Assembly (NCBI GenBank): GCA_023145435.1
Contig: JAGLDS010000004.1
Span: forward strand, 40,546-104,545
Source: Clostridiales bacterium
GTDB lineage: Bacteria > Bacillota > Clostridia > DUPQ01
Direction of reading: 5' to 3'
Length of the DNA stretch: 64,000 bases
Below are positions 28,268 through 52,985 of the stretch, piece after piece. The stretch's first letter is position 1. Each line of letters starts with the position of its first letter. The notes beneath the pieces were generated by a model. It searched no databases, had not been told where the DNA came from, and was given only the letters and a program-made list of their open reading frames with translations. Made by a program: the position numbers and the translations under genes.

Positions 28268-29635
28268 TCATTTACACAACTGGTAGTATGTATTCTTACT
28301 CTTCCCGCTTTTTATAACAATCCCTAGATTTTCCATTTCACGTAAAAGGTTACCACTTTTTGTTTGACTAAACCCATATGATTTTTGAATATCATTTCTC
28401 ATTATGTACCCATTGATTTTAATAGTTTTCTTTATATCTTCTATAACAGCTTCCCTGTCATAAATATTAACTAGGTGTTTTTCAGTTCCTAGGTCACTGC
28501 TACTATTATATGCTTCATGTGTATCTTCTACAGTCATATATTCCTCTAATTGATTAAGTTTAGGAAGCCTTAAAATAAATGCATTAGGTGTAATCTTAAA
28601 CTCTGGTTTAACTGACAAACCATTATACACTGATAGGATTTTAGTAATGCCAGTACCATAGGCTTCAATAAGTTCTAGACGATAGAAAATATTTGCAAGT
28701 TTTTCATTTCTTTGTTTTGAAACACCTTCCATAATATCCTCAAGTTCCAAACCATCTGGTAAAGTACCCATGGAAACAAATTCACAATAATTATTAAATA
28801 TATTGACAAAGATACTTCCTCCCACTCCATAATCCCTATGAATAAGCGCATTAAGAAGTCCTTCTCTAAGCGTTATAGGATCATAATCATATTGATCTTT
28901 TCTACGTAGTCCTTCATAAGTAGTATCCATATGATTGTGCATTTGTAAATATTGATATACATCATTCATCTGTCTTAACAATGAACCTCCAAACTCCTGT
29001 CTGTGTTTAAACTTAGTTTTGTTATCACCTTCAAAAATAGCAGCTTTAACAATGTGAGGACACTGATCAGATAGCAATAACGCCAAATTGTTATACAATC
29101 CATCTTCATCAATCATTCCTAAGGTTTTAAAATTTACCTGTTTGAACTCTAATTCACGTTGTTCAAACTGATTTCTTGCATACAAAAAAGTCAAGTTTTG
29201 TTTAAGTGATCTTGTTGTTTCGTATGTTATCCCATGGCTTTTAATAATCATCAACCAAATATCTTTATCACTAACTGGGATACTTGTATTTCCCAAACGT
29301 ATATATACACCAGATGGTCTCATTCCCTTATCTTTAAGATAATATGGTTTACCCTCTCCTCTTTGAACTTCAATGATAATAATATCTTTTCCAGCAATAG
29401 TCTTCTTCTGTAGATTGACATAATTAATGACAGAGGGCATTATTTTATCGCGAATTATAGATGATATAACTTCAAGCTGCTCTTTTATTCCTTTTATTCC
29501 AATAACCTCACCATCATCAGATATTCCAATGTAGATTTTACCACCAAGAGTATTTGCAAAAGCAACTACCTCTTTCATTAGGTCCTTACTCATCTCTTCT
29601 TTTAATTCAATTGTATCTGATTCAATATATTGCAA
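28268..29635 (-). CDS. AlbA_2 (Schlafen-like 'divergent AAA') + HATPase_c_4 + C-terminal wHTH putative DNA-binding regulator
   Basis: N-terminus IELKEEMSKDLMKEVVAFANTLGGKIYIGISDDGEVIGI is the AlbA_2 signature. The C-terminal HTH is NDIQKSYGFSQTKSGNLLREMENLGIV. Confidence 0.65.
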   Translation of the reverse strand: MQYIESDTIELKEEMSKDLMKEVVAFANTLGGKIYIGISDDGEVIGIKGIKEQLEVISSIIRDKIMPSVINYVNLQKKTIAGKDIIIIEVQRGEGKPYYLKDKGMRPSGVYIRLGNTSIPVSDKDIWLMIIKSHGITYETTRSLKQNLTFLYARNQFEQRELEFKQVNFKTLGMIDEDGLYNNLALLLSDQCPHIVKAAIFEGDNKTKFKHRQEFGGSLLRQMNDVYQYLQMHNHMDTTYEGLRRKDQYDYDPITLREGLLNALIHRDYGVGGSIFVNIFNNYCEFVSMGTLPDGLELEDIMEGVSKQRNEKLANIFYRLELIEAYGTGITKILSVYNGLSVKPEFKITPNAFILRLPKLNQLEEYMTVEDTHEAYNSSSDLGTEKHLVNIYDREAVIEDIKKTIKINGYIMRNDIQKSYGFSQTKSGNLLREMENLGIVIKSGKSKNTYYQLCK

Positions 29636-29897
29636 AATGTTCTCCTAAAATATTTTCTATCTTATTCTATCACTTTCTATCTTTTTCTGTCAAATTAATT
29701 ACTGTAACAGCGCTTTCATTATTAACAATATATATCGCAAAATCTATTTCTTTTTAACTTTTTGTTGATAAATAAATAATTAAATACTTTACTACATTGA
29801 AAACTTAATACCTTTAGTTAACTGAATAGGAAAGACACCTTTTATCAGATGCCTTTAATTAAACTATTTCACATATACTTTTTCATCTAATATTAAG

Positions 29898-31235
29898 CTA
29901 GTCTCTTGATTCAATTTTTTGTTCAAATACATTTTCATCTTCAATTAAACATACTACATTGCTTAAAATAATTTTATAATTATCTACCAATGGTATATTA
30001 CTGAATTTGAAAAACTTACTTACTTTCAAATTAGATTCATCATCTTTGACTAAATCTCCAAACTGTTTTGACTTATATCTTATATCATTATTCTCAACAT
30101 ATAGAGAATAACCTTTTACCTTGTCGTCTATTGTGTTTGATGAATTTATTATAAGTTCATTTGTAATACTATCATATACAATTTTATCAATCCAAATTAT
30201 CTCATCCTTATAAGTAATTCCCATAGGAAAGTTTTTATTTAAATCAACATCAATTTCAACTGTTATATTTCCATCGTAAAAATATCCTAAAAATCCAATA
30301 TATATCGTCTGATTTTGATTATAGTAACATGAATCATTAAATATCACCCTAATATATCTTTTCCCATCTTCTTTATAATAATATTCAAAATTATTTTCAG
30401 CATAGATTTTAGTTGATGAATCTAATTGAATATATAGTTTATTAAATTCACTAATGGTATAAGGGTTTTTATCATCTAATCTTATAAGAAGTTCAGTTCT
30501 GGTTGGATATGAGATTAATTTTTCAAAGCATATATCTCCATATACTGTTTGGTAGTCTATATTTAATAGATGTTCATTAGAAAGAGCAATGTCTGTATCT
30601 AATACTGTTACTTTTACTTTTCCAACTTCAACAATTTGTTCACTTTGTCCATTCAAAAGCTGCATGTCCACTTGTATAATTCCATCATTAGAAATAATAT
30701 CCTTTAACTCAAAAAGTTTAAATTTAATATCTAGCTTACTTACTGGTTCATCATTTACTACTTCATGTGATGAGGAAGTCCTTTCTCCAAAATCATCTGG
30801 CATTGCAACAATTAACATTTCTTTGTTTAATTCTTCATTTTTCACTTTATAACGAGCTGTAATGTTAACTCTTGCTTCATCAATTATGATGTGATCAAGA
30901 TAAATAATATAGTCTTCGTTTTCAACCATCATTGGTCCAAAATCTTTATATTCATTTAATACAGCTTTTTCTATCCCATAATCTCTATTAAAATAAAACC
31001 ATTTAATACTTTCTCTAATGCCAGGAATATTGTTAGCTATAACTCTAAACCCAGAAGATATGTTAATTAATAATATATATGCTACTAATACAACAACAAC
31101 CACGCTAACATATTTAAGTGGTTGTCTTTTTCTTCTTGTTATTAATAATGTACTTTTTGTAACTTCATCTAGTTTACTACTTAGAGTAAAATCTTCTTTT
31201 ATATGATTTTCAAGGATAAATTTATCATTATTCAT
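29898..31235 (-). CDS. Putative anti-sigma factor (single-pass membrane protein with large extracytoplasmic domain)
   Basis: Immediately downstream of the ECF sigma gene. Single TM at ~aa 42-62. Confidence 0.5.
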   Translation of the reverse strand: MNNDKFILENHIKEDFTLSSKLDEVTKSTLLITRRKRQPLKYVSVVVVVLVAYILLINISSGFRVIANNIPGIRESIKWFYFNRDYGIEKAVLNEYKDFGPMMVENEDYIIYLDHIIIDEARVNITARYKVKNEELNKEMLIVAMPDDFGERTSSSHEVVNDEPVSKLDIKFKLFELKDIISNDGIIQVDMQLLNGQSEQIVEVGKVKVTVLDTDIALSNEHLLNIDYQTVYGDICFEKLISYPTRTELLIRLDDKNPYTISEFNKLYIQLDSSTKIYAENNFEYYYKEDGKRYIRVIFNDSCYYNQNQTIYIGFLGYFYDGNITVEIDVDLNKNFPMGITYKDEIIWIDKIVYDSITNELIINSSNTIDDKVKGYSLYVENNDIRYKSKQFGDLVKDDESNLKVSKFFKFSNIPLVDNYKIILSNVVCLIEDENVFEQKIESRD

Positions 31236-31248
31236 TAGTTTTTTTCTC

Positions 31249-31746
31249 CTATACTTGTAATTTCTTTTTTAATTCTTGTAGTTGACGATATAGTTTTGTT
31301 TTAATGCTACTTAAAGGAATTTGTAGTATTTCGCTTATTTCTGATAAAGTATATCCTTGATAATATTTTAGATAAATAATCATTTTTTCGACTTCTGGTA
31401 AAGTGACTAATAAATCTTTTAAATCAATATCTTCATAAACATCTTCATGTGTTATGTTTCCTATAATTTCATTATAATAAATTATTTTGCCATTTTTCTT
31501 AATGATTTTTTTGCACTCGTTGATAATTATTCGAGTAAACCAGGTTGTAAAATATTGAGGATTTTTAAGTTTTCTAATATGCTTAAATGAATACAGTACC
31601 GCACTGCTAAAAGAATCAAGAGCATCATGTTCGTTTCTTAGATAACATAATGCAACTCTATATGATTTTTCTTTTATTTCATTAATTAAACTTGAATAAG
31701 CTTCCTTATTCCCTTTTATAGCTTTTTTTACAACTATGTCGTCCAT
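31249..31746 (-). CDS. ECF-type RNA polymerase sigma-70 family factor
   Basis: Region 2 (FTTWFTRIIINE) and region 4 HTH (YTLSEISEILQIPLSSIKTKLYR). Start refined to MDDIVVKK (RBS AAGGAGA). Confidence 0.75.
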   Translation of the reverse strand: MDDIVVKKAIKGNKEAYSSLINEIKEKSYRVALCYLRNEHDALDSFSSAVLYSFKHIRKLKNPQYFTTWFTRIIINECKKIIKKNGKIIYYNEIIGNITHEDVYEDIDLKDLLVTLPEVEKMIIYLKYYQGYTLSEISEILQIPLSSIKTKLYRQLQELKKKLQV

Positions 31747-31924
31747 CCACGTCTCCTTGTACACTTGATATTCTAGAATTCTCTTATTAGATATCACTAA
31801 TGCCTAAAAAGTTTCAAATATTTTTAGTATGTTAATAATTTTTACTTGCCCTTGAAATTATAATTAATATACAAGTATTAAAATATAAAATGATTTTTAT
31901 ATCTCAAATGAAATGGTACTACAT

Positions 31925-32790
31925 AATGAATAAGCTTGACAATTTTTTATTTGATTACTACAGATATACCTGCATTTTATTTAGAATGGTTTTTCAAAAG
32001 AATTGAAGAAGGATTTGTTTTAGTTAGAAATCCTATGAATTATCATCAAGTAAGCAAAGTTAAGTTAACACCAGATGTGATTGACTGCATTGTTTTTTTG
32101 ACTTAAAATCCTACTAAAATTATAAACAATTTAGACAAACTTAAAGATTTTAATTATTATTTTCAAATAACCATTACACCCTATGATAAGTCAATTGAAA
32201 AAAATATACCTAATAAAGAAATTATTATCAATTCATTTATAACATTATCTAGAAAAATTGGTAAAGAAAAAGTTATTTGGCGTTATGATCCAATCCTACT
32301 AACTGAAAATATTGATATCAACTATCATAAAATTCAATTTGAACAATTAGCATCAAAATTTAAAAATTACACAGATTTATGTGTAATAAGCTTTACTGAT
32401 AATTATTCAAAAACTACTCAAAACATGAAGTTACTAAAACAAACTACTATAAATAAAAAACAAATGTTAGATATTGGAAAAACTCTTTCCACAATCGCAA
32501 ATAAGTATAGTATTAAAATTGAAACTTGCTCAGTAAAAATTGATTTATCATCCGTTGGTATTAAACATGGCAAATGTATAGATGATAGTCTTATTTCATC
32601 AATTGTTGATCAAAAGTTAGATATAAAAAAAGATAAAAACCAAAGAGAGATTTGTGGTTGTGTTTCAAGCATTGATATAGGCACATATAACACTTGTACC
32701 CACGAGTGTTTGTACTGCTATGCTAACTTTAGTTTAAATTCTATAGAAAACAACATTATAAAACATGATATATTTCACCTTTTTTAATTG
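31925..32790 (+). pseudogene. DUF1848-family (Cys-rich) gene disrupted by an in-frame TAA (~32101) and possibly an N-terminal frameshift
   Basis: Translation gives ...ITTDIPAFYLEWFFKRIEEGFVLVRNP...IVFLT*, then resumes in the same frame NPTKIINNLDKL...CGCVSSIDIGTYNTCTHECLYCYANF. The only complete ORF is the C-terminal 120 aa (32425..32787). Confidence 0.55.
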
Positions 32791-33096
32791 GTACTCTTGA
32801 ACAAGAACGTAAAGTAACTGAAAAAAAGATGAATTTATACTTACCCAATCAATTAAGCTTTCATATTTGAATAATATATTTCATCCTAATTATTGCTCAA
32901 TCACCAATTAAATTCTCAAACCTTCTAACTATTAATATCTGTTAGAGTACATAGCATGTACTCACTTAATAGGAAGCAAATCTATCCTAAAATTCATTAT
33001 AAGGGTTTTCTTGATAAATAAGATATTGATAAAATGATATAATTTTTAAAATTACAGTTCTTAAAACAAATTACTATATAAACACATTATCCCAAA

Positions 33097-34967
33097 TCAC
33101 TTTTGTAATTTACTTCTTAAGTATTTTTCTAGTTCTTTATCGACACAATATATATAGCACCCTTTTTGCCCTCTTGTTAATAGTGTTCTATAAGTGTTTT
33201 TAATAATCTCATCAGCAATAGCTTTCGCTTTATCAGGATCTTTCTTATTAAGACCTTTAATACCTTTTAGTGATTGATCTGTATTTGCTCTTTTCATAAA
33301 ATCTGTTTTTATTTTCTCATTAGAGTATGATAAGTCTTCTCCAATAATAACTCCAACATAATCAAACTCCAAGCCTTGTGATGTGTGAATACAACCAACT
33401 TGATTTACAGAGTTTGGGTCAATTGCATATGTTCCAGTATTACCAAGATTCCAACTCATACAAAAATCAAACTCAGGAATCTCAATATCAAATACATCTT
33501 CTCTATTCTTTCCATCTTTTATCCAGTTCCAACAATATCCTGCTAATATTCTTGATTTATTAGATACTTCATTTTTTTTAATTATTGCATTTCTAAGTTC
33601 ATTTGGATTATCAAATATTTTAAAATCATAATCATCAAAACCATCGTAATTAGCAGTATTCTTAATTTCTAAAATATTATCTATCCATGACAAATATCCA
33701 TCAGATCCATTACATCTGAACTGTGAAGACAACTCCATCTTTTCATATATTGCATGATTTTTATTTGAATATTTTTCAATTTCAGCAACACTACCAATAT
33801 CTTTAATTGAAATTCGCTGACATTCGTCTATAAAAAAGATAGAAAATTTTGAAGAATATATAATTTCTTTGACTTGATTTTCCCCTAAGTTTGAAAATAA
33901 TCCAGATTTTTCGTTTAATCTATGGGCTTCATCAACAATAATAGTATCAAAATAGTTTTTTGGTGTATTTATGTATGAACCTGATCCTTTAAACATATTT
34001 TTAACACTAATGTTTTATGCTTGCCTTTTAATTTTTGAAAATAAACGTTTCTTGGTGCTGCGTTTTTAGAGGTGTATTGGCATACTAATTCTTTTTTAGT
34101 TAGTTCAGTTAATAGGTTTATTGCGAGTACTGATTTACCCGTCCCAGGTCCACCTTCTACAATTAATACTCTTTTTTTATTATCTTTTTGTGATTTTAAT
34201 GCCATTTCTATAGCTTTTTCATAAACAACTTTTTGCTCATCGATCATTACAAACTCAGAATTACCAGCTAGCATACTACTTAGGGAATCTTGCAATGATT
34301 TAGATGGTTTTAATTTACCATTCTCAATTTTATATAATATTTCTTTATTATCACCTTTTTTAATGTGTTTAAGAATAAATTGCTGTAAGAATTTTATTTC
34401 GCCAAATGAATATATAGGAGCTTTTTCTAAATAATACCCATATATACTGCTAAGAAGAGGATCATTTTTCTCTTTCTTTTTATAATTGTGTAAATATGCG
34501 CATGGTAGAAGTTTTATATTTTCTTTTTGAACAATTTCATTAAAATCACTTATTACAGATGCATACGACCATGCCTGATAAGATGGGTGGGTAGTCTCTC
34601 TATTTGATCCACCAATATATGTTTTTACAATCCCATCTTTCCCTTCAACTTTTTCGACCTTTTCCCATTGTTTAAGTTCAATAATTACAGCTGCTCCATT
34701 ATCATTTTCATCTCTTCCAGATATAATAAAATCAACTCTCTTAGACGTGTAAGGAATATTAAATTCAATAGCTATACCTGAATTGTCTGGAATATTACTA
34801 TTTGACATTACTATAAACATATATCTCATAGAATTCTTCCAAGAACGTTCTTCTGATTTAGAAGGGTTACCAAATTTAGGTATATATTTTTCTTTAATTT
34901 TATCAACTATAATATCGTTGATTACACATTCTCCGAAGTCTTTTTTTACTGATTCATAAACTAACAT
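33097..34967 (-). pseudogene. DUF2075-family PD-(D/E)xK nuclease + SF1-like ATPase/helicase gene, split into two ORFs (33969..34967 and 33097..33996) by a frameshift at an A-run
   Basis: The N-terminal ORF carries VDFIISG...VIIELKQW (D...ExK) and Walker A GGPGTGKS. The C-terminal ORF carries TIIVDEAHRL (Walker B/DEAH-like). The frames overlap around 33969-33996, within ttaaaaatatg. Confidence 0.6.
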
Positions 34968-34978
34968 AATACCCCTAA

Positions 34979-35293
34979 TTACAATTTATCGTATTTTTTG
35001 CTATTTCCTTTTGACTTTTCAACTGGATATTTTTTTTCATTTTTTTCAATTTTATTATTAATGATTTCTTCTATATCTAAATCTAATGATTCTGCCATTA
35101 ATATGCAGTATATTAATACATCTGCTAGTTCATCTTTTACTTTTCCCACATCATATGAACCATTCCATTGAAAATTTTCTAATAATTCTCCAGCTTCAAT
35201 TGATATTGATTTTGATAGGTTCTCAGGAGTATGAAATTGCTTCCAATTTCTTTTATTCCTAAACTCAATAATCTTTTTAAAATATTCTTTCAT
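34979..35293 (-). CDS. MazG-like nucleoside triphosphate pyrophosphohydrolase (YpjD-like)
   Basis: 104 aa. EAGELLENFQW...ELADVLIYCILMAESLDLD is the MazG/EEXXE(x)nD-type motif. Confidence 0.7.
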   Translation of the reverse strand: MKEYFKKIIEFRNKRNWKQFHTPENLSKSISIEAGELLENFQWNGSYDVGKVKDELADVLIYCILMAESLDLDIEEIINNKIEKNEKKYPVEKSKGNSKKYDKL

Positions 35294-35736
35294 AATATAA
35301 CCCTCAAATTGTTAAGATTAATCACATACAACAACTATATTTTATCATAGAAAATTTATAAAAAACACTACATTACTTACCTATTATATGAATGATACAG
35401 ATTATATAATTTCTGATATTTTTCTTATGACAGATTATAGTTGATTCTTTCCTTACTCTCCCCCGAATATTTTCATATATTAATTGGTAAAATATTATAT
35501 GCTTTTATACATAAGATACTATTTCCTTCTGTCTTTTCATTATAAATTAAGTTTTAACAGAAAAAACACTTCTCATTAAACATTTTATTTTCTAAATTAG
35601 CTATATACTAACATATATTGGCACTTTAGCACATTGACATAAAATAAAATATTTATGTACTATTAGTAGCATGTTTTATTTAAAAATAGAGTGTATAATA
35701 ATACAATAAATTCAAGTATAGATTGGAAATCAGAAT

Positions 35737-36777
35737 ATGAATAATACTCCCTTGACTAGACAACAAATGAAAGATGTTATAAATGGTGTTTCATCAGCCC
35801 CAAGAATACCCATGATGATCCATTTTTGGACCTATCCAGAAGTTTTTGAAGATAAACAAAATATTGTAGAAGAATTATTAAATAAATACCCTATGGATGC
35901 AAATGTAACAAAAATTAAAATGCCACGTGTTTTCGACGCTCCTGAAGATACACCAAGTTATAGATGGGTTAACTTTGATGATCCAGATAAAGGTAAAAAA
36001 ACAGGTATTGATGAAAAAGGTGCAATTAGTGACTGGAGCATGTGGGAAGATGTACTAAAAGACTTTCCTTCTCCTGAGTATGAAGGTCTATTTTCTGATA
36101 AAAGTCCTGAAGATGGACGTTACCACTTAGGTATGTGGTGGTATTGTCTTTTTGAAAGGCATTGGTCTTTACGAGGTATGACAAATTCATTAATTGATTT
36201 TTATGAAAATCCTAAACAAGTTCATGCACTATACCGTGCATTAACAGATTTTTACTTGAGAGTTATAGAACGTAGCAAAGAAGAATTAAACCTTGATGGT
36301 ATTTTCGTAAGTGATGATATTGGTATGCAAACAGGAGCATTTTTTTCTAAAACCATTTTTGATGAATTTTTTAAACCATATTATAAAGAATTAGTTGATA
36401 AAGCTCACTCTCTTGATATGCATTTTTGGTTACATACTTGTGGTAATGTAGAGTCATTTTTACCATCTTTTATTGAAATTGGTATAGATGTTATTCACCC
36501 AATCCAAAAACATACAATGGTAGAAAAAGAAATATCAAAAAAGTATGGTAGTGATATTTGTATATGGGCAGGTTTTGATGTACAACAAATTATACCTTAT
36601 GGCACTCCTAGTGAAGTTAGAAAAGAAGTTAGGTTTATGATTGATACTTATTACAGAAAAGATGGTCGTTTTATTCTTACAGCTGGGAACGGTATAACTG
36701 AAGACTGTAAAATAGAAAGTTTGGAAGCTCTTTTAGATGAAACATTAAAGTATGGAACAAATAAAATTTCAAAATAG
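35737..36777 (+). CDS. Uroporphyrinogen decarboxylase (URO-D)-family protein (MtaA/CmuA-like methyltransferase-type)
   Basis: 346 aa. The DDIGMQTG...HTCGN core is typical of the URO-D family. Confidence 0.55.
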   Translation: MNNTPLTRQQMKDVINGVSSAPRIPMMIHFWTYPEVFEDKQNIVEELLNKYPMDANVTKIKMPRVFDAPEDTPSYRWVNFDDPDKGKKTGIDEKGAISDWSMWEDVLKDFPSPEYEGLFSDKSPEDGRYHLGMWWYCLFERHWSLRGMTNSLIDFYENPKQVHALYRALTDFYLRVIERSKEELNLDGIFVSDDIGMQTGAFFSKTIFDEFFKPYYKELVDKAHSLDMHFWLHTCGNVESFLPSFIEIGIDVIHPIQKHTMVEKEISKKYGSDICIWAGFDVQQIIPYGTPSEVRKEVRFMIDTYYRKDGRFILTAGNGITEDCKIESLEALLDETLKYGTNKISK

Positions 36778-36802
36778 AGGTATTAATAATTTTTAAAATT
36801 AA

Positions 36803-37948
36803 TTATTTTTTTACAGTAACAATGGTATCACCCACTGTTTTTTTCTCTATTATTTGTATTTTAAAAGCTCTTTTAAACATTTCAATTTGTTTTACTTCAT
36901 AATCAGCTACTAATGTAATAGCAACACCTTTTTTACCTATTCGCCCTGTTCTTCCTACTCTATGAAGATAATCTCGCGATTTTCCTGGTACACCCATATT
37001 AATAATGTGAGTGATGTCTTTAATGTCTAATCCCCTTGCTGCAATGTCTGTTACCACAAGGTATTTTAGTACACCTGATTTAAATTGATCAACAATTTGT
37101 TTTCGCTCGCTTTTCCATTTATTGCCGTGTAATCCTCTTGTTTTAATATGGTGATAGTTTAATCGTTCAACTAAAATGTCCACCTCTTCTCTTCCATTCA
37201 CAAAAATAAGTGCTTTTTTAGGGTTTAAAATCCTAATAACCTTTCTAATTACATCAATCTTATTTCTCTGACTTGACATAAAATAAAGGTGCTCTATGGT
37301 ATCTGGTATTTTACTTTGATCATTTGCTACAATAAAACTAGGATCTTTCATTAATTGAGTAGCATAATCTTTAGCTTCAGCTGTAATTGATGCTGAAACC
37401 ATTAATAATTGTCTATCTTTTTGTGTTGTTTTAATAATAGCTTTAATAGTATCAATATTATGTTTACTAACCAAATTATCAGCTTCATCAATAATAATAG
37501 TTTTAATTGTATGTGATGAGATTTTTTTCATTTTTATTAATTCTAGAATTCTTCCTGGAGATCCAACAATAATATGAGGTTTTTTCTTTAAATTATCGAT
37601 TTGTCTTTTTATATTTACCTTGCCTATAATTGGTAATGAACTAATTATATAATTTGCATTAGTTGCTAATAATTCAATCTGTCTTAATACCTGTATACCA
37701 AGTTCATGAGTAGGTACTAATATAATCGCTTGCATTTCTTTTATACTTTGATCAATTTTTTCAAATAACGGAATTAGATAAGCAAGTGTTTTACCAGTTC
37801 CTGTTTCTGATTGAATAACTAAATCTCTATTTTGTATTTGTAAAGGGATTACTTTTTCTTGAACCTTGGTTAGTTTAGTAATGTCTTGCTTATGTAATCC
37901 TTTGATTATTTGATTACTAATCTTATGGTTTTTTAAAAACTCAATCAT
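36803..37948 (-). CDS. DEAD-box ATP-dependent RNA helicase
   Basis: Motifs Q, GTGKT, DEAD, SAS and HRVGRTGR. Confidence 0.88.
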   Translation of the reverse strand: MIEFLKNHKISNQIIKGLHKQDITKLTKVQEKVIPLQIQNRDLVIQSETGTGKTLAYLIPLFEKIDQSIKEMQAIILVPTHELGIQVLRQIELLATNANYIISSLPIIGKVNIKRQIDNLKKKPHIIVGSPGRILELIKMKKISSHTIKTIIIDEADNLVSKHNIDTIKAIIKTTQKDRQLLMVSASITAEAKDYATQLMKDPSFIVANDQSKIPDTIEHLYFMSSQRNKIDVIRKVIRILNPKKALIFVNGREEVDILVERLNYHHIKTRGLHGNKWKSERKQIVDQFKSGVLKYLVVTDIAARGLDIKDITHIINMGVPGKSRDYLHRVGRTGRIGKKGVAITLVADYEVKQIEMFKRAFKIQIIEKKTVGDTIVTVKK

Positions 37949-39873
37949 TATTTTTCCTCATTTTTCTTTTTTTGATTTTTTATTGCCTTGGCTAGTTCAT
38001 ATAAATACTCCCAGCGTTCCATGGCCTGACTTAATAGCTTATCTAACTTTTCTTTTTTCTCTAGTTTTTTTTGTAATAAAGTAAAGTCACTGACTACCTG
38101 CAACACTTCATTATTTATCTTACTTACTTTTTCCTCTAATGATTCAACTAAATCATCAATTGATTCAAATTCACGTTGTTCGTTAAAAGTAAATTTTAAT
38201 GTTTTATTCTTTTTATTATATTCACTAACATTAGATTTTACTACTTTTTCCTTATTTATACTTTTAGTAATGTTGTTTTCTATCTGTTTTGATTCATAGT
38301 AATCTGAATAGTTTCCTTGAAACTGTTTAATATTTTGATTACCATCAAATATAAAAATCTTTTTCGCTACTCTATCTAAAAAATACCGATCATGGGATAC
38401 AGTAATAACTACTCCACTAAATTCGTTTAAATAATTCTCTAATATGGTTAATGTATGTATGTCTAAATCATTTGTTGGTTCATCTAATAATATTACATTT
38501 GGTGAACTCATTAAGATTCTAAGTAAATATAGTCTACGTTTTTCTCCACCTGAAAGTTTAGAAATTAGCTTCCAATGAGTTTCTGTTGGGAACAAAAAAC
38601 GTTCTAGCATTTTTGAAGCACTTACTAATCCATCATTTGTCTTTAAAAATTCAGCTTGTTCTTTTATATAGTCTATAATCGTTAAATCATGATTCATTTC
38701 ATCATTTTCTTGCATAAAGAATCCAATTTTTATTGTTTCTCCACTGTCTATTATCCCTTTATCTGGAATTACTCTTTTAGCAATTAAATTTAACAATGTT
38801 GATTTACCACTACCATTAGGTCCAATAATACCAATTCTATCAGCCCTATCAAAATTGTAGCTAAATTGATTTATTAATGTAATCCCATGATATCCTTTAT
38901 CAATGTTAATTAATTCAATAATCTTTTTTCCTAATCTTGTGCTACCCACATTAATATTTAAATCATTATTTGAATTATCTAATTTACTTTCTTCTAATAT
39001 ATCAAAACGCTCTATTCGTGCCTTTTGTTTTGTAGTACGTGCTCTAGCTCCTCTTTGCATCCATTCAAGTTCTTTTCTATATAGGCTCTGTCTCTTACGT
39101 TCTGATGCTATTTCATTTTCTTCTCTTTGTGCTTTTAGAGCTAAGTACTGCTCATAATTAGCTTGATAGTTATATAAGCTTCCTTTTTCAATTTCTATAA
39201 TTCTTGTACATATTCGTTGTAAAAAGTAACGATCATGTGTCACCATGAGTAAAGCACCACTACGATTATTTAAATACTTTTCTAACCAATCAATGGTATT
39301 ATTATCCAGTTGATTAGTTGGCTCATCTAATATTAATAAGTCGGTAGGTGCAATTAATGCACTAGCAAGTGCAATTCTTTTTTTCTGACCACCAGACAAA
39401 CTATTTATTTTTAAATCAAAATCAGTTATCCCTAACTTAGTTAATATTGTTTTGACTTCACTTTCTATTGACCAAGCTTTCATATTGTCTATTTTTTGTG
39501 TTAATAAGATTACTTTTTTTTGAAGTGTTTTATCTTCTGGTAATTTATTTAATAAACTAAGCGCTTCTTCATATTTTCTTAAAAGCTTCATAACTTTTGA
39601 ATCACCTTTAAAAATTTGTTCAAGTACTGTACTTTTCCCATTAAGTACCTGATTCTGTGGTAAATACTCGATAGATAACCCATTAGTTTTTATTATTTTT
39701 CCTGTGTTATATGTTTCAACTCCTGCAATGATTTTTAACAGTGTTGATTTACCAGTTCCATTTACACCAATAATCCCTAATTTTTCTCCCTCATCTATTC
39801 CAAGGGATACTTCATTTAAAAGTATTTCTTCACTGTATGATTTTGATATATATAAAGCTGATAATATATTCAA
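37948..39873 (-). CDS. ABC-F family ATPase (two ABC domains, C-terminal coiled coil)
   Basis: Two Walker A motifs (GVNGTGKST, GPNGSGKST), two LSGG signatures, and a Lys/Glu-rich tail. Confidence 0.85.
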   Translation of the reverse strand: MNILSALYISKSYSEEILLNEVSLGIDEGEKLGIIGVNGTGKSTLLKIIAGVETYNTGKIIKTNGLSIEYLPQNQVLNGKSTVLEQIFKGDSKVMKLLRKYEEALSLLNKLPEDKTLQKKVILLTQKIDNMKAWSIESEVKTILTKLGITDFDLKINSLSGGQKKRIALASALIAPTDLLILDEPTNQLDNNTIDWLEKYLNNRSGALLMVTHDRYFLQRICTRIIEIEKGSLYNYQANYEQYLALKAQREENEIASERKRQSLYRKELEWMQRGARARTTKQKARIERFDILEESKLDNSNNDLNINVGSTRLGKKIIELINIDKGYHGITLINQFSYNFDRADRIGIIGPNGSGKSTLLNLIAKRVIPDKGIIDSGETIKIGFFMQENDEMNHDLTIIDYIKEQAEFLKTNDGLVSASKMLERFLFPTETHWKLISKLSGGEKRRLYLLRILMSSPNVILLDEPTNDLDIHTLTILENYLNEFSGVVITVSHDRYFLDRVAKKIFIFDGNQNIKQFQGNYSDYYESKQIENNITKSINKEKVVKSNVSEYNKKNKTLKFTFNEQREFESIDDLVESLEEKVSKINNEVLQVVSDFTLLQKKLEKKEKLDKLLSQAMERWEYLYELAKAIKNQKKKNEEK

Positions 39874-39891
39874 ATATTTCTCCTATTTTCT

Positions 39892-41508
39892 CTAACTATA
39901 CATTTTCTTTCGTAAAATAGTGATATCTTCATTTTCTAAATACTCATCATAAGACATTTGTCTATCAATAATTCCCTTAGGTGTAATTTCAATAATTCTA
40001 TTAGCAACCGTATGTACAAACTTATGATCATGGGATGCAAATAAAAGTGTTCCTTTATATTTTATTAATCCATCATTTAATGCAGTGATTGATTCTAAAT
40101 CAAGATGATTAGTAGGTTCATCTAAAATTAATATATTTGCACCTGATAGCATCATTTTAGATAACATACATCTAACTCTCTCTCCCCCTGATAATACATT
40201 AACTTGTTTTTTTGCATCTTCTCCTGAAAAAAGCATTCGTCCTAACCATCCTCTTATAAAGGTATCATCTTTATCTGTTGAATACTGGCGTAACCAATCA
40301 ATAATACTTTCATTATGTCCATCAAAGTAACTTGAATTATCTTTTGGAAAATATGCCTGTGTTGTTGTAATTCCCCATTTATACGTTCCACTATCAGCAC
40401 TTAATTCACCCATTAGTAGTTTAAACAATGTGGTTTTTATTAAACTATTTGATCCTACAAGTGCTATTTTATCGCCCTTATTGACCATAAAACTAATATT
40501 ATCTAAGATATTAATACCATCAATTTGTTTAGTTATATCACTTATTTCTAAAAGATCATTCCCAATTTCTCTTTCAGGTTTAAAATCAATAAAAGGATAT
40601 TTTCTTGATGAAGGTTTAATATCTTCTAACGTAAGTTTTTCTAATTGTTTTTTTCTAGAAGTCGCTTGTTTAGATTTAGAAGCATTCGCACTAAAACGCT
40701 GAATAAAGGCTTCTAAGTCTTTTCTCTTAGCTTCTGTCTTTTTATTATAATCTTTCATTTGTTGTAATACTAATTGACTTGACTGATACCAGAAATTATA
40801 ATTCCCTGGAAATACCTTTATTTTACTAAAATCAATATCAGCAATATGTGTACACACCTTATTTAAAAAATGTCTATCATGAGATACCACTATAACTGTG
40901 TTCCCAAAATTGAATAAAAAGTTTTCAAGCCATGTAATCGCTGCTACATCTAAATGGTTTGTTGGTTCATCTAGCAGTAGAATTTGTGGATTGCCAAATA
41001 GAGCTTGTGCTAACAGAACACGGATTTTATCATTACTCTCTATTTCTGCCATTTTTTTTTCAAAAATATTTTCTTTAATACCTAAACCATTTAATAAAAT
41101 AATAGCCTGTGATTCAGCTTCCCATCCATCTAACTCAGCAAATTCAGTTTCTAATTCTGAAATTTTAATACCATCAGCTTCTGTAAAATCCTCTTTTTCA
41201 TAAAGGTGTTCTTTTTCTTCAATTATCTCATTAAGTCGCTTATGACCCTTTATCACTGTATTTAACACATTATACTCATCAAATTCATATTGATTCTGAT
41301 TTAAAACTGCTAATCTGTGATTTTTTGCAATAACAACATCACCCTTATTGGCTTCAATCTCACCTGATAAGATTTTTAAAAATGTTGATTTACCAGAACC
41401 ATTTGCCCCTATAAGGCCATAACAGTTTCCTGGGATGAATTTTATATTAACGTTTTCAAATAGTGTTTGCTCACCAAACCTAAGTGAAATTCCGTTGGCT
41501 TTAATCAT
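39892..41508 (-). CDS. ABC-F family ATPase (EttA/YfmM-like)
   Basis: Two ABC domains (GANGSGKST, LSGGERVR) and no TM domain. Confidence 0.85.
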   Translation of the reverse strand: MIKANGISLRFGEQTLFENVNIKFIPGNCYGLIGANGSGKSTFLKILSGEIEANKGDVVIAKNHRLAVLNQNQYEFDEYNVLNTVIKGHKRLNEIIEEKEHLYEKEDFTEADGIKISELETEFAELDGWEAESQAIILLNGLGIKENIFEKKMAEIESNDKIRVLLAQALFGNPQILLLDEPTNHLDVAAITWLENFLFNFGNTVIVVSHDRHFLNKVCTHIADIDFSKIKVFPGNYNFWYQSSQLVLQQMKDYNKKTEAKRKDLEAFIQRFSANASKSKQATSRKKQLEKLTLEDIKPSSRKYPFIDFKPEREIGNDLLEISDITKQIDGINILDNISFMVNKGDKIALVGSNSLIKTTLFKLLMGELSADSGTYKWGITTTQAYFPKDNSSYFDGHNESIIDWLRQYSTDKDDTFIRGWLGRMLFSGEDAKKQVNVLSGGERVRCMLSKMMLSGANILILDEPTNHLDLESITALNDGLIKYKGTLLFASHDHKFVHTVANRIIEITPKGIIDRQMSYDEYLENEDITILRKKMYS

Positions 41509-41649
41509 TTATTTACCATCCTTTTTTTACTTGTCGGCCTATTATAACACTAAGTCAGAAAATTACTAGTTAATCTTGGTTTTTTTATGATTATTTACTT
41601 ATAAATAAATTATTTCTTTTATTTTTTTAATGTAACAGGTGGAACAATT

Positions 41650-42420
41650 TTATTTACTTTGCACAGCTCTGTTCATGATTTGAAAAATTATATTACAAGT
41701 ATCTTCAAATAAAATGTCTTTTGCATAATCAAACTCTTTTTGGTATCTTATCCAAAAATCATGCATCCTTGTACTTTTTTTTATTTTATCCACTATATCT
41801 TTATATTGTGATAGTACAACTAAACTCCCACGTTTTTTAGTTGTTTCATACAGAGCGTTTTGTAATATATTCAAATTAATTTCTAATCTATTCAATGTAT
41901 AAATATTATATATATCATAGAAATCTCTTGGTCGAGTATTAGCAATATTTCGTGACAAGACTGTTTCAAGTTTTTCAGCTAAAATAGTTTCAAGATTATA
42001 TGCTACAATCGCAATTGAATGTTCATCAAAAAGCAATTTAAAATTATACTCAATTTCGTGTGGAGTAATTATATCACCAGTAGTAATATCAACTTTAATT
42101 GGTACCTTAAGTGGTGGATAACTAGCTATTATACTAATACGAATACCCAAATAATCATCTTTTTCTCTAATATCAGTTATATTGACAATAGAAAAAGAAA
42201 CATCATCTTCTATTTCAATTTGACATATTCTTTCAAATATTACTTTTATGGACTCATGTGTAAGTTTAATTCCTTTTATAGTAGCATCAAGATCCATTGT
42301 GGCTCTACTATCAAGCCCAACAATAGAAGCAATAAGAAATCCACCTTTAAGAATAAAGTTTTTTTTGTATTTGGAAACAGAAATCCTCTCTAACAATCTT
42401 TCCATCATGTAGTTTTGCAT
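41650..42420 (-). CDS. abiEii: AbiEii/AbiGii-family nucleotidyltransferase toxin (DUF1814)
   Basis: N-terminus FILKGGFLIASIVGLDSRATMDLDATIKG is the AbiEii NTase signature. Confidence 0.75.
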   Translation of the reverse strand: MQNYMMERLLERISVSKYKKNFILKGGFLIASIVGLDSRATMDLDATIKGIKLTHESIKVIFERICQIEIEDDVSFSIVNITDIREKDDYLGIRISIIASYPPLKVPIKVDITTGDIITPHEIEYNFKLLFDEHSIAIVAYNLETILAEKLETVLSRNIANTRPRDFYDIYNIYTLNRLEINLNILQNALYETTKKRGSLVVLSQYKDIVDKIKKSTRMHDFWIRYQKEFDYAKDILFEDTCNIIFQIMNRAVQSK

Positions 42421-42496
42421 AACAAGTTGAGCAGATATATTTTTTTCAGAGGCTTTTTCTTAATAAATGATTTTAATTGCATCGGATTTTTTGTAA

Positions 42497-43093
42497 TCAT
42501 AGAAGTATCTCCATATATGTGAGAATTTTAGGTTTTACACGAAGTTTTTCTGCATAATTCAAAATTTTCGCAATATCCTTATCCTTGCTTCTTGCGTAGA
42601 TTTTCATAGCCTGATTCACAATTTGTATATCAGCATTATGTTTAACCTTAACAATATCACAAAGGGTACGTTCAACATCGTATACTCTAATAAAATTCCC
42701 ACTAGGAGACAGAATTTTTACAACACCTAAATTATAATTTTCTAGGGTAGTAAGCTTGGCTATTACACTTTTTTTTCTGACATTACCTGTATTGTAACCG
42801 TTTGGAAAAGTCATAGTATATTTAATAGGTGTACGATCTGTAATATCATGCAAATATAAAGCCGTTTCATGGGAAAATATTCCCTTTGAAAAGCGGTATT
42901 GTAAAAAGTATAACTCATCTTCCCACACCTCTGGCAAGACATATATACCACGGTCACTCCTATATACAGCTCCTTCTTCCTCCATTTTACTTAGATAGTG
43001 TCTTGGTATCCCTGCCTTAGTAACTTGAGTTGCAGTAATAAAGCCTTTATTTTCTTTTATGATTTTCTGAATTATCTTAATATTTTTAGTCAT
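42497..43093 (-). CDS. abiEi: AbiEi antitoxin / transcriptional regulator (type IV TA)
   Basis: N-terminal AbiEi_4-like wHTH (KGFITATQVTKAGIPRHYLSKMEEEGAVYRSDRGIYVL). Positioned immediately upstream of abiEii. Confidence 0.7.
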   Translation of the reverse strand: MTKNIKIIQKIIKENKGFITATQVTKAGIPRHYLSKMEEEGAVYRSDRGIYVLPEVWEDELYFLQYRFSKGIFSHETALYLHDITDRTPIKYTMTFPNGYNTGNVRKKSVIAKLTTLENYNLGVVKILSPSGNFIRVYDVERTLCDIVKVKHNADIQIVNQAMKIYARSKDKDIAKILNYAEKLRVKPKILTYMEILL

Positions 43094-43278
43094 ATTTGCA
43101 CCACCTTGCTTTATGTACGTTTGTGCTATTAACTATATCATATAGCAGCATTTTTGTACATTTTATTTTGTTTAATCATTACTTGCTTTTTATAGATTTC
43201 TCATCCGGTATATGTACAATTCAATTCATGTTGCACATCTCTTATCTATCTGATTTTTAGTATCTGTTGTTTCTTTTG

Positions 43279-43315
43279 TAACTGTAACACGATAAAGTTT
43301 ATCGTGTTACAGTTA
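43279..43315. promoter_or_regulatory. Perfect 18-bp inverted repeat (37-bp palindrome), candidate operator
   Basis: TAACTGTAACACGATAAA-g-TTTATCGTGTTACAGTTA. No flanking U-run, so it is not a classical terminator. Confidence 0.5.
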
Positions 43316-43368
43316 ATGCATTATGCTTTCTTAATAATATCAAGAAGCAAATTTAAAAATACCTAATT

Positions 43369-44013
43369 TCATTTTCTATCTGCATAATCCTTTTCAATTT
43401 TCTTTTTCCAATTAGCTCTAATTACAGGATTTTTTCTATAACTTCTTATGGTTTCCCCTACTTCTGCATAGTTTAATTTAGTTCCCCTACTATCAGCATG
43501 GTAGTTAACAGCTCTATCTCTATTAATCCCAAACTTGGCAGCTGTTGCAACAGCGTCAATATTAGCTCCTAAAAACAAGAATTCCCAATTATACTTTTCT
43601 TTTTGTCGTTCTATCATATATTTAATATTTCTATGATTATACTCTCTACTAGCATTTTCCATACCATCTGTTGTTATAACAAAAAGCACATTATCTGATT
43701 TTGCTTCATCAGCTCTATATTTTTGTGCATTACCAACTGAGTCAATAGATCTACCAATTGCATCAAGTAGCGCCGTTGAACCTCTTACAAAATAATTTTC
43801 TTTTGTTAGTGGTGATATATCTTTAATGTTTGTACGATCATGTAACAGTTCATAATGATCATCAAATAAAACTGTTGTGACTAATACTTCCCCTTCTCCA
43901 TTTCTTTGTTTTTCGATCATTGAATTGAATCCACCAATGGTATCACTTTCAAGTCCTGCCATTGATCCGCTTCTGTCTAAAATAAATACTAATTCTGTTA
44001 CTTTTGTTTTCAT
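43369..44013 (-). CDS. von Willebrand factor A (vWA) domain protein
   Basis: MIDAS DRSGSM, plus TALLDA and TDG motifs. Start refined to MKTKV (RBS GGAGGG). Confidence 0.75.
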   Translation of the reverse strand: MKTKVTELVFILDRSGSMAGLESDTIGGFNSMIEKQRNGEGEVLVTTVLFDDHYELLHDRTNIKDISPLTKENYFVRGSTALLDAIGRSIDSVGNAQKYRADEAKSDNVLFVITTDGMENASREYNHRNIKYMIERQKEKYNWEFLFLGANIDAVATAAKFGINRDRAVNYHADSRGTKLNYAEVGETIRSYRKNPVIRANWKKKIEKDYADRK

Positions 44014-44094
44014 AATGTTTCCCTCCATATATTTTATATATAGAGAATAGCATCTTATATAATCTAAATGGTCGCTTCAAAAGCGACTATTATA

Positions 44095-52733: not shown

Positions 52734-52985
52734 TTAATCTCCTGTTTTCTTACTAGCTCTATATGTCTCAATATGCTCTCTTAATGCTGAATTCATCAAT
52801 GTTTGATAACCAATTTTTTGTTCACTGGCTTTTTTCTTGTATTTTAAAATAACATCATCATCTAGCCTAATGGTTATTGACTTTTTAGTAGGAGAATAAA
52901 ACCGTCCTCTTATACCTTCAGAAAAATCATATTCATCTTTTAAAATAAATTTATCATTATTACTTTTCATATTGTTTCCTTTCAT
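52734..52985 (-). CDS. brnA: BrnA antitoxin
   Basis: SITIRLDDDVILKYKKKASEQKIGYQTLMNSALREH matches the BrnA family. Confidence 0.75.
   Translation of the reverse strand: MKGNNMKSNNDKFILKDEYDFSEGIRGRFYSPTKKSITIRLDDDVILKYKKKASEQKIGYQTLMNSALREHIETYRASKKTGD

Follow-up and report, generated by a model that had tools for sequence, protein, structure and literature searches.

A conserved two-gene operon of a MazG-like pyrophosphohydrolase and a DUF2075 nuclease-helicase, a putative defence module in an uncultured Clostridiales bacterium

In a 64,000-nucleotide stretch of Clostridiales DNA (the window), we find a two-gene operon, conserved and horizontally transferred, in which a small MazG-like pyrophosphohydrolase gene precedes the gene of a large nuclease-helicase. 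On balance, we favour the reading that the pair is a putative defence module against phage or plasmids, with the Nhi-like nuclease-helicase as its effector and the small enzyme as an accessory that acts on the nucleotide pool. The window copy of the helicase gene is interrupted by the loss of a single base; rather than a long-standing pseudogene, it is a product of faulty assembly or a variant that lost its function very recently.

RESULTS

The three open reading frames (ORFs) that had been predicted for the locus were all found on the minus strand, on which every feature of the two genes given below also lies. The first encodes a 104-aa MazG-like, DCTPP1-like all-alpha NTP pyrophosphohydrolase (35293..34979; GenBank MCK5811718.1 by exact-sequence look-up). 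The other two belong to one nuclease-helicase gene (34967..33097) that is split here into ORF1 (34967..33969, 332 aa) and ORF2 (33996..33097, 299 aa). The MazG-like gene was expected to end 11 nt upstream of a gene of about 630 aa on the common strand, and both the gap (34968..34978, TAA-TTAGGGGTATT-ATG) and a helicase of 623 aa in its intact form were indeed read in the sequence. The spacer contains the ribosome-binding site of the helicase gene, an arrangement that suggests translational coupling of the two genes. A promoter scan was uninformative (27 promoter-like sites versus 24 expected), and a terminator scan found none. Both genes are real.

The large protein joins a PD-(D/E)xK nuclease to a DUF2075 helicase of predicted SF1B type (RecD/Dda/Upf1/SLFN11-like). 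ORF1 matches the DUF2075/SLFN-g3_helicase profile (PF09848) at profile positions 1-58 (E 3.1e-11, 43.6 bits) and ORF2 at positions 63-354 (E 4.7e-84, 283.1 bits), both above the gathering cut-off of 24 bits; since they cover successive parts of one profile, they are two halves of one gene, which agrees with the original prediction of a DUF2075/Schlafen-like helicase split in two ORFs. The repaired protein and its homologs of 608 to 666 aa (at least 8,000 matches) align over their whole lengths. Its N-terminal domain (aa 1-235, 34263..34967) contains E68 (IAIEF, 34761-34775), D79 (RVDFII, 34722-34739), and E97-x-K99 (IIELKQW, 34665-34685), together with a RecB-like QxxxY motif (QAWSY, 34563-34577). 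It combines the restriction-endonuclease-like alpha/beta core with the D...(D/E)xK motif of the PD-(D/E)xK superfamily; lack of this fold had been named beforehand as a possible refutation, and the nuclease core and catalytic motif were found. Walker A (helicase motif I, GGPGTGKS, 34131..34154) lies in ORF1 and is invariant in the alignment, and the Walker B/DEAH box (VDEAHR, 33919..33936; D346, E347, H349, and R350 invariant) lies in ORF2. Two C-terminal SF1-type helicase motifs follow, GCIHTSQGLEFD (33361-33396) and YRTLLTRGQKG (33160-33192), whose residues are invariant or nearly so. The motifs named in advance (read here as GGPGTGKS, VDEAHR, RVDFII, and IIELKQW) were each located in the sequence, and the catalytic motifs of nuclease and helicase alike are invariant among the homologs. 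Searched by sequence against PDB chains, the helicase gave no match, but a structure search gave relatives: with the full helicase model, Foldseek matched RecD, RecD2, SLFN11, Dda, and Upf1. The two RecA-like domains of SF1B enzymes, a class that unwinds 5'-3', and their motifs (Walker A, DExx, and the C-terminal motifs V and VI) were found in the predicted helicase by sequence and model.

The MazG identity proposed for the 104-aa protein was borne out by two Pfam profiles, MazG-like PF12643 (E 2.7e-21, 76 bits, against a gathering cut-off of 27 bits) and MazG PF03819 (E 5.4e-8). The protein has metal-binding ExxExxE (IEAGELLE, 35177-35200) and ExxD (DELADV, 35117-35134) motifs and a base-stacking FQW (35165-35173), and the E..ELLE, E.AD, and F.W motifs are kept in at least 90% of 55 helicase-linked MazG-like homologs. 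It is collinear over its full length with an archaeal pyrophosphatase (PDB 4qgp, E 3.5e-20) and with mouse/human DCTPP1 (RS21-C6, mammalian dCTP pyrophosphatase 1; E 5e-16), and the three have the motifs R-D/N-W-x-Q-F-H, E-x-G-E-L-x-E-x-F-Q-W, and E-L-x-D-V-L-I-Y in common. Judged by these motifs, the partner is a predicted catalytically competent DCTPP1-like pyrophosphatase. DCTPP1 itself has no link to a nuclease-helicase; it prefers 5-modified dCTP.

The pairing of the two genes is widespread. The MazG-like gene directly adjoins the helicase gene in 55 of 80 species-representative genome loci, upstream in 33 and downstream in 22, with gaps mostly below 50 nt and with both genes on a common strand in 54 of the 55 pairs. 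In the reverse direction, a DUF2075 helicase, in some cases only 27 to 37% identical, lies no more than 300 nt away in at least 40 of the 80 metagenome loci that the MazG-like query retrieved. The pair spans Bacillota, Bacteroidota, Pseudomonadota, Synergistota, methanogens, and haloarchaea; it is present on a haloarchaeal megaplasmid, and on a plasmid of B. thuringiensis an HNH gene lies between the two genes. The divergences of the MazG-like protein and the helicase correlate (Mantel r 0.73, reached by 0 of 2,000 permutations), and sequence identity is 52 to 65% across phyla and into archaea, which is high for a defence gene. With co-occurrence strong in both search directions, the two genes are a conserved module, as had been predicted, and neither ground for refutation named in advance, a lack of co-occurrence or a housekeeping YpjD identity of the MazG-like gene, overturns this: at least half of its close relatives adjoin a DUF2075 helicase, while the other neighbours vary. 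About a third of the close relatives of the MazG-like gene occur on their own, next to housekeeping genes, which marks the partner as a generic house-cleaning enzyme type. Conversely, about a quarter of the helicases, mostly from Bacillaceae, have no MazG-like partner, and in these loci no substitute conserved partner recurs, save occasional NUDIX genes; a NUDIX pyrophosphohydrolase takes the MazG position in one of them (L024) and is found nearby in six other loci. A phage or plasmid origin of the pair was rejected, with one close match among 50,697 phage records and only a handful of megaplasmids carrying the pair.

The surroundings of the module were predicted to be of a defence type, and this stands in part. 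AbiEi/AbiEii (41650-43093) and BrnT/BrnA (52734-53241) exist, but they lie 6.4 kb and 17.4 kb from the module with housekeeping genes between; the immediate neighbours are housekeeping genes as well, and defence genes are not densely clustered in the window. Among related loci, only L009, from a closely related genome, shares a window neighbour (an AlbA_2 gene), with different gene content beside the module, and DUF1848 is not linked to the module, with no match in 80 loci. The 212 neighbours tallied in 53 loci include no family seen more than three times, i.e., there is no synteny. Genes of several kinds flank the module: type IV enzymes (DUF3427 and McrBC), RM, Mokosh, PARIS AriA, SoFic, and AbiL, as well as reverse transcriptases and relaxases. 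By counts uncorrected for background, genes of restriction, Mokosh, PARIS, or SoFic are frequent there. In four loci, PLD-helicase-DUF3427 type IV enzymes adjoin the module.

The loss of one base parts Walker A (ORF1) from Walker B (ORF2). We place it at 34013..34016, where a plus-strand T4 reads AAAA on the minus strand (in CATAAAACATT) and the intact allele has five. Over 7,803 bp, the Logan contig L081 has one difference from the window, an extra A in minus-strand CATAAAAACATT, and this base yields the intact 623-aa protein P0124, reading ...KGKHKNISVKNMFKG...; a further contig, L168, adds 6,893 bases identical to the window, for a total of 14.7 kb of otherwise-identical background. L009, a 91.5%-identical relative with an intact gene, also supports a lesion at the T4. 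The original prediction had put the frameshift at the A5 run of ttaaaaatatg (about 33969-33996), a position that has to be given up because L009 has the same A5 run and L081 places the lesion elsewhere. An extra A in the TTAAAAATATG run would likewise restore a full-length protein, but the DNA of L009 and L081 disagrees with this repair and puts the missing base 16 to 20 nt upstream of that run.

With an intact gene in an independent assembly that is identical over 14.7 kb, the break either arose in assembly or is a variant of very recent date; the apparent pseudogene of the window is one base from intact and may be an assembly artefact. A true and meaningful frameshift had been suggested, by which a costly gene would be inactivated under selection or switched on and off through slippage (phase variation), and although we do not favour it, we give it a serious chance, somewhat below even. 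The A4 and A5 alleles are both seen in backgrounds identical over 14.7 kb, as on/off switching would give; the adjoining convergent DUF1848 gene has a real in-frame stop in both assemblies; and a short-read assembly, which the scaffold naming suggests, rarely miscounts a 5-nt homopolymer. However, the run is only 4 to 5 nt long, and known phase-variable tracts are far longer. The helicase ORF is interrupted in only 1 of 80 species loci (a few loci hold a partial gene), which does not suggest recurrent inactivation, and one difference in 14.7 kb between assembled contigs could just as well stem from an error in the consensus or from a minority variant. Programmed frameshifting was rejected, as the sequence has neither a slippery heptamer nor a downstream structure and a T precedes the A4 run.

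DISCUSSION

The pair is not new to the field. It could not be placed in a named system at first, and none of the named systems in PADLOC captures it, but Millman et al. 2022 had already listed it as the candidate "Pyrophosphatase" (bioRxiv 10.1101/2022.05.11.491447, Table S2), picked by the Sorek lab from defence-associated clusters and represented by SG192 from Bacillus firmus LK28 and SG193 from B. thuringiensis Lr3/2. In that study, SG192 gave no defence against 26 phages (12 of E. coli and 14 of B. subtilis), and the cloning of SG193 failed. The candidate was never named or validated and is found only in the supplementary table; none of the papers that we followed up from literature searches describes the pair, and the lead came from supplementary tables. 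SG192 has the same gene order as the window, an approximately 100-aa pyrophosphatase followed by an approximately 640-aa DUF2075 protein, and its MazG-like protein is 47% and its helicase 55% (first 400 aa) identical to those of the window. On these grounds, we take SG192 to be the orthologous module, from which the window copy differs in coming from an uncultured Clostridiales MAG and in being frameshifted.

Among validated defences, the closest in layout are single-gene Nhi and Nhi-like. Nhi-like (SG141 from Bacillus cereus FSL H8-0482; Millman et al. 2022) has the same architecture of an N-terminal PD-(D/E)xK domain and a DUF2075 SF1 helicase. In hhalign, it is matched to the window protein with a probability of 92.8% (E 4e-7) at about 22% identity; the 271 aligned columns are collinear and extend from the nuclease motifs to the two Walker motifs, and by this alignment the window helicase would be its distant, collinear homolog. 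Nhi-like stands alone, however, whereas the window family is a clearly separate clade with a pyrophosphatase partner and a putative role in defence. Nhi (SERP2475 of Staphylococcus epidermidis; Bari et al.) and AbiO also have an N-terminal PD-(D/E)xK domain and SF1B motifs overlapping DUF2075. Nevertheless, their PADLOC models match the helicase core only, with partial coverage (E 2.4e-5 to 3.6e-10) and no full-length match, and Nhi has about 470 profile positions, versus 623 aa in the window, and no partner gene. The remaining PADLOC match, the candidate PDC-S41, is likewise one protein and comparable in length (657 profile positions), and its N- and C-terminal halves are matched with 29.5 and 30.5 bits (E 6e-8 and 2.8e-8); at only about 30 bits, it is a distant relative, and the window protein is not a member. 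Vertebrate group III Schlafens (SLFN11, SLFN14, and relatives) have a C-terminal helicase of the same Pfam family, PF09848, and SLFN11 and SLFN14 are among the top structural matches of the helicase model, but their N-terminal domain is a Slfn/AlbA_2 RNase instead of a PD-(D/E)xK nuclease; the recent "bacterial Schlafens" have this RNase domain in common, not the window-type helicase. Hachiman (HamA DUF1837 nuclease and SF2 HamB), Hna, and Mokosh were ruled out by helicase class and the absence of HMM matches.

How might such a pair act? The large protein would be the effector: its helicase may load on and translocate along foreign or replicating DNA, and its nuclease may degrade the DNA so engaged. 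The MazG-like protein, possibly in a complex with the effector, would act on the nucleotide pool; its likeliest activity would be hydrolysis of dNTPs that are modified or of the dCTP type. The pyrophosphatase could thereby deprive phage replication of special nucleotides, or it could keep modified nucleotides released by the breakdown of phage DNA out of host DNA, which would otherwise become a target itself. Several findings speak against a role in defence. The sole direct test, that of SG192 from B. firmus, was negative; the window neighbours are housekeeping genes, conservation is high, and both stand-alone MazG-like relatives and partnerless helicases occur; and the PADLOC models of validated systems give only weak partial matches. 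The phage panel used for SG192 may have missed the target, e.g., modified-DNA phages or methylated plasmids. DUF2075 nuclease-helicases (Nhi and Nhi-like) are validated defences with a helicase common to human Schlafens, and their regulation and target choice are poorly understood. In bacteria and archaea alike, a large clade of them, strongly conserved, is firmly linked to a DCTPP1-like pyrophosphatase, which points to an unexplored tie between nucleotide-pool editing and DNA-targeting immunity.

A more specific version, which we regard as unlikely, would join a modification-sensitive nuclease-helicase to an enzyme that rids the nucleotide pool of modified forms. The DCTPP1-like protein would break down dCTP-type nucleotides with a modification, e.g., 5-methyl- or 5-hydroxymethyl-dCTP, along with other phage-specific dNTPs, so that phages with hypermodified DNA would be starved or forced into unmodified, restrictable DNA, while salvaged modified nucleotides would be kept out of the host chromosome and autoimmunity would be prevented. 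Hints in this direction are the collinearity with DCTPP1, the NUDIX genes in the MazG position or nearby, and the adjoining DUF3427 type IV enzymes. A further hint is that phages escape from Nhi-like by loss of a methylase, i.e., that its behaviour is modification sensitive (bioRxiv 10.1101/2022.08.27.505566).

Alternatively, the pair may serve DNA repair and house-cleaning of the nucleotide pool rather than immunity, the pyrophosphatase removing damaged or non-canonical dNTPs and the nuclease-helicase processing the resulting lesions or stalled forks. We consider this improbable, although it has real points in its favour: close MazG-like relatives stand alone by peptide deformylase, methionine synthase, or NUDIX genes, DCTPP1 is a known house-cleaning enzyme, conservation across phyla is very high, SG192 has no anti-phage phenotype, and housekeeping genes surround the module in the window. 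A repair function is harder to reconcile with a patchy, horizontally transferred distribution without conserved synteny, with the presence on megaplasmids, and with the different gene content beside the module in so close a relative as L009. Flanks rich in restriction, Mokosh, PARIS, and SoFic genes, the apparent distant homology of the helicase to a validated defence protein, and the selection of the pair from defence-associated clusters by Millman et al. also argue against it.

It is rather doubtful that the MazG-like protein is a regulator, sensor, or antidote instead of a pool enzyme. It would then bind, or cleave, a nucleotide made by the phage or used in signalling and restrain a toxic nuclease-helicase until infection, comparable to KomB of Kongming, a HAM1-like sensor with an NTP-pyrophosphatase fold that is reported to have lost activity (review PMC13434031). 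The ribosome-binding site just after the MazG-like stop codon in an 11-nt gap, the codivergence of the two genes, this precedent, and the failed cloning of SG193, which may hint at toxicity, would all suit a regulator. Yet the catalytic ExxE...ExxD is kept in at least 90% of the partners, in contrast to the reported loss of activity in KomB, and both gene orders occur. In addition, the helicases without such a partner, about a quarter, indicate that the helicase is not obligately toxic alone.

Finally, that the MazG-like gene is a ubiquitous YpjD-type housekeeping ortholog that lies beside the helicase by chance is highly improbable: some of its close relatives do stand alone in housekeeping contexts, but the linkage recurs in both search directions, in many phyla and in both orders while all other neighbours vary, the two proteins diverge together, and the partner persists with helicases that are only about 25 to 30% identical.

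Predicted products of the gene pair

Motifs and fold matches show an operon encoding a predicted PD-(D/E)xK nuclease with intact motifs, fused to an SF1B helicase, and a DCTPP1-like pyrophosphatase that should be catalytically competent. On the minus strand of the window, a MazG-like ORF of 104 aa (35293..34979; Pfam MazG-like PF12643, E 2.7e-21) is followed head to tail by minus-strand ORFs of 332 aa (34967..33969) and 299 aa (33996..33097), which cover consecutive stretches (positions 1-58 and 63-354) of a single DUF2075/SLFN-g3_helicase profile. The MazG stop and the helicase start are 11 nt apart, and this spacer contains a Shine-Dalgarno-like AGGGG. Walker A (GGPGTGKS), the DEAH box (VDEAHR), the SF1-type C-terminal motifs GCIHTSQGLEFD and YRTLLTRGQKG, and the nuclease motifs E68, D79, E97-x-K99, and Q131xxxY135 are present in the helicase gene and invariant among 51 homologs. 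ORFs, profile matches, and motifs thus bear out the two-gene module of the original prediction, except for the position of its frameshift. The MazG-like protein is deposited at NCBI as MCK5811718.1 ('MAG: nucleotide pyrophosphohydrolase [Clostridiales bacterium]'); the window (29% G+C) derives from scaffold_49 (139,069 bp) of ENA assembly ERZ23498500, sample SAMN18200488.

In an AlphaFold2 model of the repaired helicase protein, calculated with the 51-sequence alignment (mean pLDDT 84, pTM 0.79), the N-terminal domain has the PD-(D/E)xK fold that had been proposed for it, and a Foldseek search of the PDB with this model retrieved the SF1B helicases RecD, RecD2, SLFN11, SLFN14, Dda, Upf1, and nsp13. 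Over its whole length, the MazG-like protein aligned with PDB entry 4qgp at E 3.5e-20 and with DCTPP1/RS21-C6 of mouse and human at E 5e-16, and the motifs RxW-QFH, ExGELxExFQW, and ELxDVLIY lie within the alignment with 4qgp/DCTPP1.

A single missing base interrupts the helicase gene

The split had been assigned to the A5 run in 'ttaaaaatatg', but the real lesion lies elsewhere. An extra A at this run restores the full-length protein, yet the run was ruled out as the true lesion by two related contigs. The first, L009, is a Clostridia MAG contig with 91.5% DNA identity and an intact helicase gene; its A5 run is the same as that of the window, and a one-base difference is found 16-20 nt upstream of the run. 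The second was reached by an exact-sequence look-up, which led to P0124, a protein of the same 90% cluster that is intact at 623 aa. P0124 is encoded on L081, a 7,803-bp contig of the Logan assembly of SRR29288234, whose sole difference from window positions 37119..29318 is one extra A: the minus strand at the lesion reads CATAAAAACATT in L081 versus CATAAAACATT in the window, and the plus strand at 34013-34016 has T5 versus T4. SRR29288234 also yielded contig L168 (6,893 bp), which matches window positions 43999..37107 at 100% identity, and the two assemblies therefore differ by a single base over 14.7 kb. The intact reading across the lesion is ...KGKHKNISVKNMFKG...

Walker A and Walker B lie on opposite sides of the break, and the split products would therefore be unable to form a working ATPase. 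An interrupted helicase ORF was seen in one of 80 loci representing one species each (L079, in-frame stop); a few of these loci are partial. The A run at the lesion is too short for classical phase variation, and no slippery heptamer is present. The split is either a consensus/assembly error or a very recent, possibly polymorphic loss-of-function allele; this 'pseudogene' is one base short of intact, and an identical background holds the intact gene.

A DUF1848 gene (31936..32787, plus strand), convergent with the helicase gene, carries an in-frame TAA at 32104-32106 (…DCIVFLT*NPTK…), and its fragments cover positions 7-55 and 169-262 of the profile. L081 has identical DNA and the same 120-aa C-terminal fragment; since the stop is common to both assemblies, this pseudogene is real. 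DUF1848 was found beside the module in none of the 80 loci.

Conservation of the pairing

Bacteria and archaea alike inherit the two genes as a pair, whose surroundings vary and are often rich in defense genes. A GTDB scan with one genome per species yielded the 80 helicase loci, which come from Clostridia, Bacilli, Lachnospiraceae, Erysipelotrichales, Negativicutes, Synergistaceae, Coriobacteriia, Bacteroidota, Gammaproteobacteria, Spirochaetota, Methanobrevibacter, and Methanomassiliicoccaceae (52-63% identity to the query for full-length matches). The genes co-occur elsewhere: tblastn placed a MazG homolog directly adjacent to the helicase in 55 of the 80 loci, upstream in 33 and downstream in 22, mainly with gaps below 50 nt and on the helicase strand in all but one (L076). 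Several of the 25 loci without MazG are contigs cut at the gene, and the remainder are mainly from Bacillaceae. On a haloarchaeal megaplasmid, an annotated 'nucleotide pyrophosphohydrolase' lies 5 nt upstream of the DUF2075 gene. Furthermore, pairwise divergence in one gene tracks that in the other (Mantel r 0.73, a value reached in 0 of 2000 permutations).

In the reverse test, 80 metagenome loci retrieved with the MazG-like query (55-71% identity) contained a DUF2075 helicase within 300 nt in 40 cases, some only 27-37% identical to the window helicase, and at 0.5-2 kb in a few more; 24 loci with adequate flanks had none. Since these stand-alone relatives adjoin housekeeping genes (peptide deformylase, methionine synthase, NUDIX), the partner is drawn from a generic house-cleaning enzyme family, but about half of the partner's own close relatives are linked to the helicase. 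The association also persists at deep divergence: a pyrophosphohydrolase adjoins a ~25%-identical helicase in SG193, a construct of Millman et al. 2022, and on a Bacillus thuringiensis plasmid.

On B. thuringiensis pBT62A (L085, 3268-6860), a 25-26% identical DUF2075 helicase is preceded by an NTP pyrophosphohydrolase and, in between, an HNH endonuclease, and is followed by an HD-domain protein; on a Streptomyces plasmid (L086, 3803-6881), the gene directly upstream of an equally distant helicase (25-26%) encodes a DUF3883 protein. The DUF2075 nuclease-helicase seems to form a hub whose accessory genes can be exchanged. The only close match in the phage database, Microcystis phage Mwe-JY31 (PP438423.1, 5657-7863; 51% identity), carries the MazG-like/helicase pair; every gene of this 22-kb record is annotated as hypothetical, and instead of a true phage genome it may be host DNA or part of a prophage. 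In a Methanomassiliicoccaceae MAG (L031), where no MazG-like gene was detected at the locus, a partial paralog comprising only helicase residues 241-618 (6687-7922) lies directly upstream of the full-length gene (8001-9863).

Among the two nearest ORFs per side at 53 related loci (212 proteins), no family other than MazG recurred more than three times. Pfam and PADLOC scans of 104 neighbors from 26 of these loci revealed many defense-type families, namely DUF3427, McrBC with AAA_5, ResIII, C5 DNA methylases, type II and type IV restriction models, Mokosh MkoA and MkoC, SoFic, PARIS AriA, and AbiL, along with reverse transcriptases and relaxases, a content that, as a raw neighbor count, matches a mobile defense-island gene. 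Proteins with a PLD nuclease, an SF2 helicase, and DUF3427, the architecture of type IV modification-dependent restriction, adjoin the module in four loci: L011 (10286-13096, same strand as MazG and starting 44 nt after it), L024 (10877-13765), L076 (4870-7974, ending 26 nt before the helicase), and L022 (2-1570). A MutT/NUDIX_4 pyrophosphohydrolase occurs in the flanks of seven helicase loci (L024, L011, L053, L034, L002, L005, and L058). In L024, which lacks MazG, it lies at 10396-10791, directly after the helicase and before the DUF3427 gene, and may be a non-homologous replacement of the pyrophosphatase partner.

Relation to known systems and possible function

Although our literature search found no paper mentioning DUF2075 together with MazG, Table S2 of Millman et al. 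2022 (bioRxiv 10.1101/2022.05.11.491447) contains a 'Pyrophosphatase' system with two constructs. SG192 (Bacillus firmus LK28) comprises a 98-aa pyrophosphatase and a 643-aa DUF2075 protein, and with 47% and 55% identity to the window proteins it is the same module. Its observed defense is marked 'x' (none), and cloning of SG193 (B. thuringiensis Lr3/2) failed. The candidates of that study came from clusters with significant defense scores, and 21 of 45 systems were protective against its panel of 12 E. coli and 14 B. subtilis phages. The negative SG192 test counts against defense, but only as weak evidence, because more than half of the screened candidates were inactive and the panel may miss the relevant trigger. 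The module is a conserved, unvalidated defense candidate that has been noticed before; with a precedent and a sole published test that was negative, the conserved pairing is a testable lead.

The module can best be classed with the Nhi-like nuclease-helicase defense proteins, as a variant with a pyrophosphatase partner. Nhi-like (SG141), a different DUF2075 protein with an N-terminal nuclease, was validated in the same screen (bioRxiv 10.1101/2022.05.11.491447); our helicase-family profile is collinear with it over the region bounded by the nuclease motifs and the DEAH box (92.8% probability and E 4e-7 in hhalign, 22% identity), and the nuclease-helicase layout is shared by Nhi of S. epidermidis. 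PADLOC gave only weak partial hits for the module, to PDC-S41, Nhi, and AbiO, and no match for the MazG-like protein. In the most likely mechanism, the large protein is an Nhi-like effector that would rely on ATP-driven translocation to locate foreign DNA and degrade it, and the small protein would edit the dNTP pool. A link to DNA modification is conceivable but unlikely: the pyrophosphatase would remove modified dCTP-type nucleotides, denying them to phages and keeping salvaged ones out of host DNA. Phages escape Nhi-like through loss of a DNA methylase, implying that DNA methylation sensitizes them (bioRxiv 10.1101/2022.08.27.505566), and a 2019 survey described DUF2075 NTPases adjoining DUF3427-DUF3883 modification-dependent enzymes (PMC6765204). 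That the pair instead serves repair and house-cleaning is likewise improbable; the origin of the partner and the negative SG192 test speak for it, and the defense-type neighbors and the likeness to Nhi-like speak against it. The partner's catalytic residues (E..ELLE and E.AD) and F.W motif are kept in at least 90% of homologs, and a role of the pyrophosphatase as a sensor or antidote is very unlikely.

Surroundings of the module in the window

AbiEi/AbiEii and BrnTA, invoked as neighbors by the original prediction, exist but are 6.4 and 17 kb away, and the flanks are mostly ordinary: a URO-D-like gene, a DEAD-box helicase, and two ABC-F ATPases on one side, and the DUF1848 pseudogene, a sigma/anti-sigma pair, an AlbA_2-HATPase protein, an MFS transporter, and gal genes on the other. 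The locus is variable, since the DUF1848 and sigma/anti-sigma segment is missing from L009, where the AlbA_2 gene starts ~650 nt past the helicase stop; in the window, this 3.4-kb stretch (DUF1848 pseudogene, sigma factor, DUF4179 anti-sigma) separates the two. The AlbA_2 protein (28268-29635, minus strand; 455 aa, 90% identical in L009) combines a Schlafen AlbA_2 domain with HATPase_c_4, and hence genes for a Schlafen-type N-domain and a Schlafen-type helicase lie close to each other but are separate.

At 41650-45117 (minus strand), the genes for AbiEii (256 aa) and AbiEi (198 aa) precede two further ORFs, one of 219 aa that matches no Pfam family and one for a 340-aa Macro-domain protein, 9 kb from the module; this stretch may be a small defense or toxin-antitoxin cluster separate from the module. 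The BrnT/BrnA toxin-antitoxin pair (52960-53241 and 52734-52985, minus strand) lies beside a UPF0236 family gene, which is in two fragments (53412-53795 and 53889-54302, plus strand) and looks broken too.
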